DNA of 64,000 nt from IMG/VR virus record IMGVR_UViG_3300028048_000055, positions 1 to 64,000 of that record. The stretch is one strand, 5' to 3'. The stretch is from a virus. Taxonomy: Duplodnaviria > Caudoviricetes. The translations under genes and the position numbers were made by a program. Under the pieces are notes generated by a model, which searched no databases, was not told where the DNA came from, and saw only the letters and a program-made list of their open reading frames with translations. Of the stretch, positions 41,922-63,313 are shown piece by piece (positions within the stretch are counted from its first letter, which is position 1; each line of letters starts with the position of its first letter).

Positions 41922-42269
41922 ATGAATTTCAGTTATATTAATGATGATTTTGAATTAGAAGCATCTTTTACAAGTAATGATGCATTAAATGCATTTAATA
42001 AAAAGATTGTAGAATTTGCATATTATAATGATAAAACTCATACTGATTTCCGTGGTAAGCCATATATTAAGTTTGAATATAGTAAAGGTAATGAATTAGT
42101 TCTCTGCGGTAAAGATACTGATCAGCTAATTGAAATTCTTAATATGTTCAATGATGTTATGATTAATTCTAGTGAACTTAATAAGTATAATATTGAAACA
42201 TATAAAGAATATGTACGGAAAGCTGCAAAAGAAGAAAAAGAAAACGGAATAAAAATTATTTCATGGTAA
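41922..42269 (+). CDS. hypothetical protein
   Basis: AGGAG SD. Confidence 0.6.
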   Translation: MNFSYINDDFELEASFTSNDALNAFNKKIVEFAYYNDKTHTDFRGKPYIKFEYSKGNELVLCGKDTDQLIEILNMFNDVMINSSELNKYNIETYKEYVRKAAKEEKENGIKIISW

Positions 42270-42680: not shown

Positions 42681-42994
42681 TGTTCCATAGCTCAGTTGGT
42701 AGAGCGACGGACTGTTTGAAATAGACACTTATATTGGAAACGATATATGAAAATCATCGCTAAGTCGGTGAAACCTGTAAAATGGCAACGCCGAGCAAGG
42801 ATTAGAAATAATCTATGTGTAGAGACTTTATACGATGAGCCTAAGTCAGTAATGATATGGCTAAGACAAAGTCCAGACTACAAACGAGTGTCCAATTTGC
42901 GCGGTGGGGGGCTTAACACCCATGCGGATGCTTGGTAACGAAAGTTATAGTAGTATGAATCCGTTGGTCCCTGGTTCGAGTCCAGGTGGAACAG
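42681..42994 (+). tRNA. tRNA-Asn(GTT) interrupted by a group I intron
   Basis: exon1 42681-42716, exon2 42958-42994 form a perfect cloverleaf. Confidence 0.92.
42717..42957 (+). ncRNA. group I intron (241 nt, no ORF)
   Basis: U.G pair at the 5' splice site in P1, terminal G, core elements TCGGTGAAACC, AACGCCGAGC, GTAGAGACT, AAGACAAAGTCC. Confidence 0.9.
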
Positions 42995-43000
42995 CTAACA

Positions 43001-43130
43001 CTTAGACAGTAATTGTTCATTGTTACAACGTTATTGTTACGCACGATGAAATTCATGCAAGTTTGGAATCGACAATATTTTGTTAATTCTGGGTAAAGTT
43101 TCAATGAATAGCGGGTGATTATTATCTAAG
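43001..43130 (+). ncRNA. unknown rod-like structured RNA
   Basis: CTTAGA/TCTAAG, TTGTTCATTG/CAATGAATAG, TATTGTT/GACAATA pairings. Confidence 0.4.
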
Positions 43131-48612: not shown

Positions 48613-48734
48613 CGACGAGTAGCTCAATTGGTAGAGCACATGTTTTTTATACCAACCGCTACTTGGCAAACTTGGTTCCTATTAATTATGGAATAGGTCC
48701 ATGGGGGTTGTAGGTTCGAGTCCTACCTTCCCGG
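48613..48734 (+). ncRNA. tRNA-like RNA with a circularly permuted TCCTAT scaffold in place of the anticodon loop
   Basis: D and T arms intact; T-ACCAAC-C-GCTA-CT-TGGC-AAA-CTTGGT-TCCTATT inside the CATG/CATG stem. Confidence 0.65.
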
Positions 48735-49840: not shown

Positions 49841-49915
49841 GGGGCTGTAGCTCAGTTTTGGTGGAGCGGAAGACTGAAGATCTTCGCGTCGCAGGTTCGA
49901 TTCCTGCCGGGGGCA
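49841..49915 (+). tRNA. tRNA-Phe(GAA)-like, mismatched acceptor stem
   Basis: GGGGCTG vs CGGGGGC (three G.G pairs). Confidence 0.65.
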
Positions 49916-50168: not shown

Positions 50169-50245
50169 CCATAGGCATAACGATTGGTTTTCCGTTTGCC
50201 ACTCTGATAAGGTGGAGACTGTAGGTTCAAATCCTACCCTATGGA
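50169..50245 (+). tRNA. tRNA-Ile(GAT)
   Basis: cloverleaf. Confidence 0.85.
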
Positions 50246-59704: not shown

Positions 59705-60130
59705 ATGCATATAATTGAAAGAGATAGTACATGGCGTGGTCCAAGCGAAGCTGTGGCATTCAATAGAGAGTGTAATGATAAGCATGATCTTGCTGTAAAA
59801 CTTGAAAAACAAGGTATTATAACTGAAGGTGTAAATACTACACTTTATGGTTATATTAACTTAGGAGAAAGATTTTTACGAATAATTCCTTCTTGGCGTT
59901 ATGATGGCTATTGGAGAACTAAAGATGGTAAATCAGATCCATATGATGTCAATATTGAAATTCCATCATTTGATGTAACTATTCCGGCTAAGCTTGATAA
60001 TATTAAGAAAGTATTTAGTTCTGACGGATATCTTATGAAAGCTATTAAAGAATATGAAGCATCTTTGCATACTGCAAAGCTTGTATTCGCAAATACTATT
60101 AAAGCAGCACAAGCATTGGATGAAGTATAA
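59705..60130 (+). CDS. hypothetical protein, tandem paralog 3
   Basis: WRGP...KLEKQGI...PSWRY...DPYDVNI. Confidence 0.7.
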   Translation: MHIIERDSTWRGPSEAVAFNRECNDKHDLAVKLEKQGIITEGVNTTLYGYINLGERFLRIIPSWRYDGYWRTKDGKSDPYDVNIEIPSFDVTIPAKLDNIKKVFSSDGYLMKAIKEYEASLHTAKLVFANTIKAAQALDEV

Positions 60131-60262: not shown

Positions 60263-60291
60263 TTTACAAACAGAAAATAAATTACTATATT
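60263..60291 (+). promoter_or_regulatory. sigma70-type promoter of tRNA block 6
   Basis: TTTACA-N17-TATATT. Confidence 0.8.
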
Positions 60292-60357
60292 TAACAACGT
60301 AAAATAACGAAAAACAAGAAAAAACTTTTATATATAATAATAAAGGATAAAAGCAAA

Positions 60358-60447
60358 ATGAACTATCAGTTATATACATCATGCACTTCTTCATGCAGAC
60401 AGCAGTCTTCATGTTATTGCATGTATTCCATTAAAACTGATGGGTGA
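60358..60447 (+). CDS. attenuator leader peptide 6 MNYQLYTSCTSSCRQQSSCYCMYSIKTDG
   Basis: AAGGA SD; S6 (all UCN), Y4, C4, Q3 (all CAG). Confidence 0.9.
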   Translation: MNYQLYTSCTSSCRQQSSCYCMYSIKTDG

Positions 60448-60477
60448 CATCATTAAAGTTTGTATATAAACTTTTAT

Positions 60478-60508
60478 GGCGTCACGAAAAGTGACGCTTT
60501 TATTTTTT
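60478..60508 (+). terminator. attenuator terminator 6
   Basis: GGCGTCAC-GAAAA-GTGACGCT plus T tract. Confidence 0.88.
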
Positions 60509-60516
60509 ATTAATTT

Positions 60517-60601
60517 GGCAGTTTCGGATAGCGGCAATTCCTGGAGGCTGTAACCCTCCCGCCTTAACGGGCTTCCGTAGGTTCGAGTCCTACAGCTGTC
60601 A
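60517..60601 (+). tRNA. tRNA-Tyr(GTA)
   Basis: class II cloverleaf. Confidence 0.9.
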
Positions 60602-60621
60602 CTAAAAATTTATGAATTTAT

Positions 60622-60708
60622 GCTAGTTTGGCAGAGTGGCGAATGCGCGTGACTGTAGATCACGTCTCTAACGAGTTAACATCAGGGGTTCGACTCCCTT
60701 AGCTAGCA
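60622..60708 (+). tRNA. tRNA-Tyr(GTA)
   Basis: class II cloverleaf. Confidence 0.9.
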
Positions 60709-60725
60709 CTAAAATATAGGTAAAA

Positions 60726-61262
60726 ATGTCAATAAGTTTAATTGAAAAATATGGAGAAGATTATATACGTAATGTTTTTAAAACTGCCAAAACAGTTGAT
60801 GAAGCATGTGAAAAATTACAAACAATAACAAAATATTTAAATTATTATGCAAAAGAATTAAATTGTATTGATGATTATAATAGAATAAAAATTAATTCTA
60901 GTCAAATTGTTAAAGAACGTTTAAAAGATTATCCAGATGCATACATAATGAAAAATGTTAATGGTGTAGTTACACGTACTATAAATGATGATGCATGGCT
61001 TAAATTAATTTTTGAAAATAAAATTAGTAGTAAAAAACAAACAATATTACGTATTCTTATTAAAGCAGGATATAAAGAAAATAAATGTGAATGTTGCGGT
61101 ATTAATGAATGGAATAAAAAACCAATAACTTTACAATTACATCACAAAAATGGAAATCCACGTGATAATTGTTTAGAAAATTTAGAAATATTATGTCCAA
61201 ATTGTCATTCACAAACTAATAATTATGGAAGTAAAAATGCGGCATTACATATAAAAGATTAA
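60726..61262 (+). CDS. HNH endonuclease
   Basis: CECCG...LQLHHKNGNPRDN..ENLEILCPNCHS. Confidence 0.9.
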   Translation: MSISLIEKYGEDYIRNVFKTAKTVDEACEKLQTITKYLNYYAKELNCIDDYNRIKINSSQIVKERLKDYPDAYIMKNVNGVVTRTINDDAWLKLIFENKISSKKQTILRILIKAGYKENKCECCGINEWNKKPITLQLHHKNGNPRDNCLENLEILCPNCHSQTNNYGSKNAALHIKD

Positions 61263-61529
61263 AACACAAACGAGTAGAACCCGTGTTGCATCATTCTTGA
61301 TTTCATGCTAACGGGCTAACCCAGATGGGGAAAACTCTGGGACGAGGAATCTGCTCTTGCGAATTAGATGAATAACAGAATGATGGTCGCAAGAGTGTAG
61401 TATTGGCTCTACTAAAATATGCCACGTGAGGCCACTTGAAATAAGAGTGAGCGGAGAGAAATTCTGGATTAACCACCTGCTGTGCTCCTTAATCAGTCCT
61501 TGCAATTAGGACGCCTGTAAGTTTGTGTT
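61263..61529 (+). ncRNA. unknown multi-stem structured RNA (~270 nt)
   Basis: AACACAAAC/GTTTGTGTT closing stem, several GC-rich hairpins, CATCATTCT/AGAATGATG long-range pairing. Confidence 0.6.
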
Positions 61530-61535
61530 AATTGT

Positions 61536-61608
61536 GCTGATATAGCCAAGTCTGGTAAGGCTGATGGTTGCAACCCATCGATCGGGAGTTCGAATCTCTC
61601 TATCAGCT
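61536..61608 (+). tRNA. tRNA-Cys(GCA)
   Basis: cloverleaf, U73. Confidence 0.92.
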
Positions 61609-61613
61609 CTACA

Positions 61614-61708
61614 TGTAGCATAGGATGTTCCTATTAATGGAAGATAGGCCATCAGGCCTTGATTCGGTTCAAATCCGAAAGCCGAAAGGCAAATTACATC
61701 CCGCTATA
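61614..61708 (+). ncRNA. TCCTAT scaffold copy 8 (T arm plus two hairpins)
   Basis: TGTAGC/GCTATA, GGATGT/ACATCC; TTCGG-TTCAAAT-CCGAA. Confidence 0.75.
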
Positions 61709-61720
61709 AGAAATTAAAAA

Positions 61721-61791
61721 ATGGCATAAGAAGTTCCTATTTCGCCCGTTAGGGCATCCGACTTGAAATCAGACTAATTACTTCTCGCTAT
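61721..61791 (+). ncRNA. TCCTAT scaffold copy 9 (hairpin + Ser TGA anticodon loop)
   Basis: ATGGC/GCTAT, AGAAGT/ACTTCT; TCCGA-CTTGAAA-TCAGA. Confidence 0.75.
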
Positions 61792-61796
61792 TTAAC

Positions 61797-61868
61797 GGCA
61801 GTATAACACAATGGTTAGTGTAGCGGAATCATAATCCGTTAATATTGGTTCGAATCCAGTTATTGCTA
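61797..61868 (+). tRNA. tRNA-Met(CAT), elongator type
   Basis: cloverleaf, G2-C71/C3-G70; Ile2 not excluded. Confidence 0.8.
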
Positions 61869-61884
61869 TAATAAAAAATTAATT

Positions 61885-62718
61885 ATGAAGTTAAAATACA
61901 TATGTCAATATTGTAATAAAGAATTAACTAGGCCATGTGCATTAGCTATACATCAACGTGTTTGTAAATTAAATCCAAATAGACAACCGTTAATAAATAA
62001 TGGTAATTTAAATATAGCTAAATATCATAAACCTAAGGCTCCATATGGAACATGGAAATGTAAGTGGTGTAATAATGACATTATTTTTGATACTAGAAAA
62101 CAATTAAAAGAACATTTAAAAGAAAAACATCCAGAAAAACGTAATGCATGGAATAAAGGCTTAACAAAAGAAACTGATGAACGTGTTAAACAATTTGGTC
62201 AAACATATTCTAAGCGAATAAAAAATAAAGAAATATCTGCACTTTTTGCAGGCAAAAAACATACAGATGAATGGCGAAAAAATCATTCAGAATTACAAAA
62301 AGAAAGATATAAAGGAATATCGATATATGCAACCGTAAGGGAAAAACGAAAATCTTATCCTGAACAATATTTTGATAAAATATTTAGTGATGCAGAAAAA
62401 CAATATCATGTAGATAGTTATTTTTTAGATTATGCATGGCCATATATTAAATTATATATTGAAGTTGATGGTGAACAACATTATACTGAATCTGGTTTAC
62501 TTCATGATAAAGAAAGAGCAGAAATATTAAGTAAATTAGGTTGGAATTGTATTACGCGTATTAGATGGAAAAATTATATAAAATTAACAACTAATGAAAA
62601 AGAAAATTTTATAAATAATTTATTAAATAAAATTAATATTTTTAAAAATGAAACTATAGGAAGCAAAACAGACTGCCGGCTCCTATATACGGTGTACAAC
62701 GTCGAAGATAAGGTCTAG
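61885..62718 (+). CDS. Zn-finger + DUF559/Vsr-like endonuclease
   Basis: paralog of 43522; LDYAW..LYIEVDGEQHY. Confidence 0.85.
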   Translation: MKLKYICQYCNKELTRPCALAIHQRVCKLNPNRQPLINNGNLNIAKYHKPKAPYGTWKCKWCNNDIIFDTRKQLKEHLKEKHPEKRNAWNKGLTKETDERVKQFGQTYSKRIKNKEISALFAGKKHTDEWRKNHSELQKERYKGISIYATVREKRKSYPEQYFDKIFSDAEKQYHVDSYFLDYAWPYIKLYIEVDGEQHYTESGLLHDKERAEILSKLGWNCITRIRWKNYIKLTTNEKENFINNLLNKINIFKNETIGSKTDCRLLYTVYNVEDKV

Positions 62719-62784
62719 GGTTTGTAAGTTTCAGTATTGGAGAAACTTATACGGCAAGGTTCACCGGGAACAATGAACCATTTT

Positions 62785-62870
62785 TGAGGATTAACCCTAA
62801 TTGGTAAGGGCACGGTTTGGAATACCGTCGTGGGTTTACTCACTTGAAAGTTCGAGTCTTTCATCCTCAG
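62785..62870 (+). tRNA. tRNA-Ser(GGA)
   Basis: class II cloverleaf. Confidence 0.9.
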
Positions 62871-62972
62871 CTACGTATGGTGTTAGCGTTAAAACGGCAT
62901 AGGTATACATATGCACGGCACTGCACAGATGAACTATGCGTATTACTGTGCAAAATAAAAAATACGCTGTCT

Positions 62973-63056
62973 GGAAGAGCATCAGATTGGCGACTCAAGC
63001 TGTCCTGAAAACAGTAGTTCCGCAAGGGCTTGTGGGTTCAAATCCCTCCTCTTCCT
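62973..63056 (+). tRNA. tRNA-Ser(TGA) with C33
   Basis: class II cloverleaf, loop CCTGAAA. Confidence 0.8.
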
Positions 63057-63061
63057 CTAAT

Positions 63062-63142
63062 GGAAGATTAGACTAACTGGTAAGTCAGCAATTTCGAACG
63101 TTGCCGCCGAAAGGCTTGGGTGTTCGAGTCACTCATCTTCCG
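63062..63142 (+). tRNA. tRNA-Ser(CGA)
   Basis: class II cloverleaf. Confidence 0.9.
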
Positions 63143-63152
63143 TTATATTTTC

Positions 63153-63228
63153 TGTCCGTTAGCCAAGTCTGTTCTAAGGCAGGGGTCTCTGAAGCCTCCA
63201 TTCGGTGGTTAAAATCCATCACGGACAA
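63153..63228 (+). tRNA. tRNA-Gln(CTG)
   Basis: cloverleaf, U1-A72. Confidence 0.85.
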
Positions 63229-63313
63229 TATTTTCAAATCTTTTTTATAACGGTCATCATTGACCGTTATTTTTTTATATTTGTTTTTATAAAAACAAAA
63301 ATAGGAAACAAAT

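Follow-up and report, generated by a model that had tools for sequence, protein, structure and literature searches.

A probable ribosome-mediated transcription attenuator at the head of a tRNA gene block in an uncultured phage

The enterobacterial leader-peptide attenuators comprise trpL, hisL, pheL and leuL together with multivalent leaders such as thrL (Thr and Ile) and ilvL (Leu, Val and Ile), and in the trp leader the outcome is decided kinetically, the terminator being the more stable of the folds. In E. coli an attenuator with the leader pheM also precedes pheST, the genes for phenylalanyl-tRNA synthetase. In its textbook form leader-peptide attenuation governs amino-acid biosynthesis, while in the locus described here the same logic appears to govern the decoders themselves, closing a feedback loop between codon speed and tRNA transcription. 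Phage tRNAs counter the cleavage or depletion of host tRNAs, which gives a rationale for making more of a given set of tRNAs when the decoding of its codons fails (PMC10264068, PMC11555353, PMC11464382). These studies cover the roles of phage tRNAs and not the control of their transcription, and full-text literature searches found no description of attenuation or leader-codon control of tRNA genes. The underlying attenuator logic is already known; its application to tRNA genes we did not find described before.

The module studied here, leader 6, is probably a ribosome-mediated transcription attenuator of a phage tRNA operon, in which slow decoding of the leader would give read-through into the tRNA genes. 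This reading had been proposed in a preliminary description of the locus and is supported by the match between leader codons and tRNA genes, by a terminator with an overlapping antiterminator and by leaders in related phages that follow their tRNA genes. The parts of the module, their overlap, the codon match and the conservation and co-variation in relatives were all read directly from DNA sequence.

The analysed stretch of DNA (the window, 64,000 nt) covers the initial 64 kb of a virus contig of 165 kb, has a G+C content of 32% and is phage-like. ARAGORN identified 38 tRNA genes in the 165-kb contig, all on the plus strand between 43 and 63 kb and arranged in blocks, and Rfam added several more, e.g. 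Phe(GAA) at 49844–49915 and Ile(GAU) at 50169–50245, the latter in block 3. The leader-6 module heads the last tRNA block of the contig, block 6 (60517–63228, plus strand), in which ARAGORN and Rfam together give eight tRNA genes, all on the plus strand: Tyr(GUA) at 60517–60602 with a second copy at 60622–60709, Cys(GCA) at 61536–61609, Met(CAU) at 61797–61868, Ser(GGA) at 62785–62871, a Ser(UGA)-like gene at 62973–63056 (Rfam tRNA model), Ser(CGA) at 63061–63143 and Gln(CUG) at 63153–63228. Seven of these are called by ARAGORN (both Tyr(GUA), Cys(GCA), Met(CAU), Ser(GGA), Ser(CGA) and Gln(CUG)), bearing out the two Tyr genes and the Cys, Met and Gln genes that had been listed for the block. 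Three Ser genes had been counted as well and three are present, with the caveat that the UGA species, missed by ARAGORN, is barely at the Rfam threshold (29.1 bits against 29) and carries a C and not a U at position 33. The orthologous Ser(UGA) gene in relatives is called by ARAGORN.

The block is closed by a terminator at 63247–63276 (plus strand), consisting of a 10-bp stem followed by a T-run, and within the block no terminator-like sites were found except one match inside tRNA-Met. Two homing-endonuclease-like ORFs are inserted in the block, one at 60726–61262 with a weak match to HNH_3 and one at 61885–62718 with a DUF559 match and zinc-finger motifs, and both are absent from the same block in a 424-kb relative, G001. 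Each of these ORFs is followed by a structured-looking spacer, of ~270 nt after the first and ~70 nt after the second. Short repeats that combine a GTTCCTATT core with tRNA-arm-like hairpins are located between tRNA genes at 61615–61795 and upstream of 46110. Elsewhere in the tRNA region two apparent tRNA halves ~250 nt apart, possibly intron-split, are situated directly after the terminator of leader 1 (~42695–43010), and a 122-nt Rfam tRNA match with an insertion can be seen at 48613–48734.

The leader ORF (60358–60447, plus strand) consists of 29 codons and a TGA stop codon at 60445–60447. Its translation contains four Tyr, four Cys, six Ser, three Gln and two Met, which agrees exactly with the 19 of 29 codons previously stated for these five amino acids. 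The regulatory codons occupy 60364–60429, while the last five codons (60430–60444) form a spacer that is non-cognate to the block. When standard wobble was applied, 18 of the 28 non-start codons were readable by the anticodons of the block and ten were non-cognate, compared with a readable background of 14.2% in the long ORFs of the contig (binomial P = 1.7e-9). Ranking all 817 ATG ORFs of 20–45 codons on both strands of the 165-kb contig by codon match placed leader 6 at the top with a score of 0.64, the runner-up being a small ORF with 0.53. The other leaders show the same preference for their own blocks, with a match of 0.62 for leader 3, 0.59 for leader 4 and 0.56 for leader 5, alongside the 0.64 of leader 6, against 0–0.19 for other blocks. 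All six Ser codons of leader 6 are of the UCN type and its block encodes Ser(GGA), Ser(UGA) and Ser(CGA), while all four Ser codons of leader 5 are AGY and the block of that leader encodes Ser(GCU), a split with a Fisher's exact P of 0.005. Likewise, the three Gln codons of leader 6 are all CAG and the tRNA-Gln of the block has the anticodon CUG. The enrichment for regulatory codons that characterises an attenuator leader is present in leader 6 down to the synonymous level.

A Shine-Dalgarno-like sequence, AAGGA (60343–60347, plus strand), could be read from the sequence 10 nt 5' of the ATG, giving the 5' leader the short ORF with start codon and ribosome-binding site that an attenuator has, and a purine-rich site with the same spacing is found 5' of all six leaders and also in relatives. 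When analysing the region further upstream, a consensus scan gave a candidate σ70-like promoter (TTTACA, 17 nt, TATATT; 60263–60291, plus strand) with a score of 10 of 12. The same promoter-like site, in a GGGTTTACAA context, precedes leaders 1, 3, 5 and 6; promoter-like matches in the region are no commoner than in shuffled sequences. Closer to the ORF, at 60329–60339 (plus strand), is a module-specific motif, TATATATAATA, which includes TATAAT and is possibly a second promoter. A motif count over the 165-kb contig gave six copies, on the plus strand only (42516, 49008, 52097, 52555, 57352 and 60329), five of them ~25 nt 5' of a leader ATG. The sixth copy is located within block 4, 3' of two Asp tRNAs.

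A megablast search revealed no close DNA relatives among deposited phages, and the mode for distant matches gave tRNA and HNH matches only. The upstream gene (59705–60130) as query found no relatives in viral contigs, and a pattern search with the leader sequence found none beyond the two already known. A search with an 18-mer of tRNA-Tyr gave 23 viral and 102 metagenome stretches, and the gene 3' of the block as query gave G001, a complete phage of 424 kb, and G002, a fragment of 31 kb. About 35 loci carry a recognisable leader 6, representing 14 distinct sequences of which ten are window-type and two belong to group B, the others being L116 and L129; within the window type, L060, L122, L137 and L024 form a subtype.

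Four indels fall inside the leader-6 ORF when nine distinct window-type orthologues are aligned, each of 3 nt, whereas those 3' of the ORF are of 1–2 nt, and the ORF is kept in eight of the nine. The Shine-Dalgarno-like site is conserved in the relatives, and together with the in-frame-only indels this is evidence of leader translation. In three identical sequences (L024, L025 and L028; L024:4197–4355) an in-frame TAA is found at leader codon 9, where the sisters L060, L122 and L137 have TCA. Within TAATG this stop codon shares bases with an ATG of the +1 frame, and the ORF starting at that ATG was considered as a replacement leader and rejected, its codons not matching the block. In the block of L024, the only one of the three to be scanned, no tRNA-Ile and no tRNA-Gln were detected, and the leader keeps four Ile codons. 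The broken leader of this lineage indicates that the element can decay or be dispensable.

Terminator scanning and folding identified an intrinsic terminator at 60478–60508 (plus strand) with an 8-bp stem (60478–60498), a 5-nt loop and a U-run at 60499–60508 (-13.4 kcal/mol, z = -4.9). It is placed between the leader and the first gene, ending 9 nt 5' of tRNA-Tyr (60517), and since this gap between U-run and tRNA leaves no room for a separate promoter the block is transcribable only by read-through. Directly upstream and overlapping with it is an antiterminator hairpin (60444–60485, plus strand; -16.4 kcal/mol, z = -5.2, with none of 200 shuffles equally good), whose 5' strand GUGAC lies over the stop codon and whose 3' strand (60478–60479 and 60481–60485) pairs seven of the eight bases of the terminator 5' arm GGCGUCAC. 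The long hairpin described earlier as starting on the TGA and sequestering the terminator 5' arm is hereby recovered, the UGA being contained in GUGAC. The competing strands are two copies of GUGAC, one at 60444–60448 together with the stop codon and one at 60491–60495, that have GUCAC at 60481–60485 as their common partner, the outer of the competing helices being short, with 5 + 4 bp. Window RNA folded from the last codons on, before the terminator 3' arm exists, adopts the antiterminator (-14.8 to -16.4 kcal/mol), and the corresponding values for window-type relatives, with RNA up to the terminator 5' arm, are -12.7 to -18.0 kcal/mol. In its geometry the antiterminator is that of an attenuator, mutually exclusive with the terminator: its 5' strand includes the stop codon, the last regulatory codon ends at 60429, and the effects of ribosome occupancy are modelled ones.

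Group B, L129 and L116 have unrelated sequences in this region, yet in each of them the stop codon is found in the 5' strand and the terminator 5' arm in the 3' strand, so that the topology of stop codon, antiterminator and terminator is kept in four sequence-unrelated versions. When the structure was placed on the alignment, 83.8% of the cells were paired compared with 36–44% with slid partners, a comparison that is somewhat favoured by the structure being derived from the window sequence. Covariation was seen as double changes in eight pairs, including the inner helix of the antiterminator, and no shuffle reached the score. In the MAFFT alignment this inner helix (helix 4) is out of register in some relatives, which understates the pairing, and individual folds were therefore relied on.

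Two further hairpins involve the leader. A long one (60363–60443, plus strand; -23.4 kcal/mol, z = -3.4) encloses the regulatory codons and ends directly 5' of the antiterminator. Compensatory changes maintain its helices in relatives, with 88–93% pairing in helices 1–3, and the hairpin may be an RNA polymerase pause or synchronising element. The other is a small hairpin of 4 bp, GAUG/CAUC, with the stop codon in its loop (60440–60452, plus strand), present in the minimum-energy fold. It occurs together with the terminator in the minimum-energy folds of the window and of six distinct window-type relatives that keep the terminator, while in L137, unlike these six, the minimum-energy fold is the antiterminator. 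In the relatives the small hairpin reads GGUG/CACC, one compensatory change from the window, and these folds weakly suggest a candidate anti-antiterminator that may hold the 5' strand after the ribosome departs. An Rfam scan of positions 42000–64000 (E <= 0.01) gave tRNA-clan matches only and no T-box or known leader family, and such an identity was excluded on this basis.

Downstream of the terminator some relatives differ from the window. In group B (L037, L039 and L022) a promoter-like site, TTTACA-N17-TATATT, is found ~10–45 nt after the leader-6 terminator and before tRNA-Tyr, which could allow attenuator-independent transcription of the block. A conserved element of ~100 nt is situated between the leader-6 terminator and tRNA-Tyr in G001 (L015:12930–13009), G002, L031, L037, L039 and L116; it contains the motifs CCCTTGAGAC and TGTATAGGA and a small hairpin and is absent from the window. 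A conserved ORF of 22–23 codons also appears within block 6 of relatives, before Ser(UGA) (L015:14398–14469, L018 on the reverse strand and L039:6490–6558). It has a TATAAT-like motif upstream and an own-block match of 0.05, and, having been selected by the automatic criteria used for the leaders, serves as a negative control.

In an equilibrium model the terminator was favoured in the naked full-length RNA (P 0.66–0.87) and had a probability of 0.5–0.9 for most positions of a stalled ribosome, rising to 0.97–0.98 when the stop codon or one of the last four or five codons was occupied by the ribosome. Clear dominance of the antiterminator was confined to some relatives with the ribosome stalled at the last regulatory codons. 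The preliminary description had let the attenuator stand or fall with the terminator depending on ribosome position, and this dependence was recovered in part: the probability does rise at the last codons and the stop, but the terminator is favoured at most positions. The ribosome-masking model at equilibrium gave no clean on/off, which speaks against a purely thermodynamic switch. With the terminator favoured at equilibrium the switch must be kinetic, as in trp, and since the trp terminator is also the more stable fold the equilibrium result is no refutation of the attenuator model. The predicted effect of ribosome position would be modest unless co-transcriptional kinetics dominate.

From these parts we infer that the leader is translated, and likewise the direction, signal and kinetics of the switch. 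Transcription would start at the promoter-like sites 5' of 60358 and a ribosome would translate the leader as RNA polymerase advances. With fast decoding of the Tyr, Cys, Ser(UCN), Gln(CAG) and Met codons the ribosome would reach the last codons or the UGA and cover GUGAC at 60444–60448, preventing the antiterminator, and the terminator at 60478–60508 would form and leave the tRNA block untranscribed. If decoding of any such codon is slow, as when the phage tRNAs are still to be made and those of the host have become scarce or have been degraded or cleaved, the ribosome would lag and GUGAC would pair with GUCAC (60481–60485) before the terminator 3' arm is made, giving read-through into the tRNA block. 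The tRNAs of the block would then restore decoding and close the switch, a negative feedback on decoding capacity that is resolved by codon set.

The leader could also be translated and control the terminator by some other logic or signal, e.g. with read-through upon efficient translation, as positive feedback or a timing device, at a fixed low level or in response to general translation capacity, which we consider unlikely. The change in terminator probability at equilibrium is modest and strongest for stalls at the last one or two regulatory codons, as such an alternative would have it, and with four layers of alternative pairings (leader hairpin, small hairpin, antiterminator and terminator) folding alone cannot settle the net logic. 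However, in each of the four versions a ribosome at the stop codon covers the antiterminator 5' strand, so that fast translation is predicted to end in termination, and a sensor of general translation would have no need for codon sets that track the tRNAs of each block.

This tracking of relocated tRNA genes by leader codons is the strongest evidence for the attenuator reading. In the window tRNA-Ile(GAU) is located in block 3, and leader 3 has five AUY codons while leader 6 has one, situated in the 3' spacer. In G001, G002, L031 and L098–L120 tRNA-Ile(GAU) is instead located in block 6 and leader 6 contains three to four AUU codons; in G001 block 3 lacks an Ile tRNA and a single Ile codon is present in leader 3. 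The Trp/Leu block is where Cys(GCA) and Gln(CUG) are found in the group B phages L021, L022, L037, L039 and others, whose block 6 consists of Tyr, Tyr, Met, Met, Ser and Ser. Leader 6 of this group lacks both Cys and CAG codons and is richer in Met and Tyr codons, while its leader 5 (Trp/Leu) has two Cys and two CAG codons, compared with none of either in leader 5 of the window. The L024/L137 subtype has lost the QQ pair from the leader and the L024 block is without a Gln tRNA, and in L137 two Ile tRNAs in the block go together with four Ile codons in the leader. L129, with a block that is possibly incompletely called, has Asp(GUC) in the Tyr block and three GAU codons in the leader. When the counts of the relevant codons were compared between leaders with and without the tRNA in the block, the separation was complete (Mann-Whitney P = 2.5e-5, not corrected for relatedness), and over 26 non-redundant leader/block pairs of the phage group the mean own-block match was 0.47, which none of 20000 permutations reached. 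Over three or more relocations of tRNA genes the codon content of the leader has kept in step with the tRNAs of its block, and for an uncultured virus this co-evolution of leader codons and relocated tRNA genes is unusually clean comparative evidence.

The ORF might on the other hand encode a functional small peptide rich in Cys, Ser and Tyr, toxin-like or modified, with a terminator of its own, its composition and closeness to tRNA genes being incidental or due to local codon adaptation. We regard this as very improbable. It would account for an ORF that is conserved and in frame in most relatives and whose conservation peaks towards the C-terminus, around the motifs YCMY and KTGG, but this conserved 3' end coincides with the RNA pairing partners, and the replacements between relatives are radical and yet stay within the set cognate to the block. 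The composition also shifts wholesale when tRNAs move, leaving group B without any Cys, and differently composed ORFs in the window are likewise matched to their own blocks. Genes for modification or export were not seen nearby, the neighbours being tRNAs and homing-endonuclease-like ORFs. That the ORF arose by chance, the hairpins amounting to a terminator for the upstream genes together with fortuitous structure and the tRNAs being transcribed via leaky read-through or an unrecognised promoter, is the least credible explanation. AT-rich DNA does abound in small ORFs (the 817 in this contig) and the promoter-like matches do not exceed those in shuffles, but the codon match is the first of the 817 with the P value given above, the indels of relatives are in-frame only with codons that co-vary with block content, and the layout of promoter and Shine-Dalgarno-like site recurs at five modules, accompanied by a motif that is nearly absent from the rest of the 165 kb.

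A wider proposal, on which we are evenly divided, is that this phage clade runs a codon-resolved homeostat of tRNA supply, comprising about six operons whose leader codons list their own anticodons, with transcription on demand, leaders and blocks that co-evolve and a function as sensor of, and counter-measure to, tRNA-targeting defence. The trigger could be the decay of host tRNAs after infection or the action of host anticodon nucleases. If the attenuator reading is true, tRNA genes regulated through translation of the codons that their products read would be described here for the first time, and such control would explain why the tRNA genes of these phages are sorted by amino acid into blocks. 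By revealing the signal that is sensed it would also bear on the purpose of phage tRNAs, i.e. codon compensation versus replacement of depleted or cleaved host tRNAs, and it would offer synthetic biology compact codon-specific sensors of tRNA availability.

When compared with known systems, the proposed module shares with T-box riboswitches a terminator/antiterminator switch in a leader RNA, the T-box responding to the state of a specific tRNA and controlling charging or amino-acid supply. The T-box differs in binding the uncharged tRNA directly, with no translation needed, and has a specifier loop, a conserved stem I architecture and a conserved T-box sequence, whereas the phage leader contains a conserved and apparently translated ORF. 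With pheST and pheM it has in common that a component of the translation apparatus, rather than amino-acid biosynthesis, is subject to attenuation; that system, however, controls a synthetase and not tRNAs, senses a single amino acid and is cellular and not viral.

Shared with the enterobacterial leader-peptide attenuators (see also PMC1183508, PMC3082878) would be a short translated leader rich in regulatory codons, a terminator directly before the genes, an antiterminator that shares bases with the terminator 5' arm and is blocked by a ribosome on the leader stop codon, and a terminator that is more stable than the antiterminator, with a kinetic decision. Unlike these, the module is located in a phage and has no sequence similarity to them (no trp, his, thr, leu or phe leader match in the Rfam scan of 42000–64000). 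The phage leader surveys five amino acids and, within them, specific synonymous codons (UCN and not AGY, CAG and not CAA), and it is one of about six modules that partition the tRNA set of the phage. Its targets are tRNA genes and not biosynthetic enzymes, and what the switch would restore is the decoder and not the amino acid.
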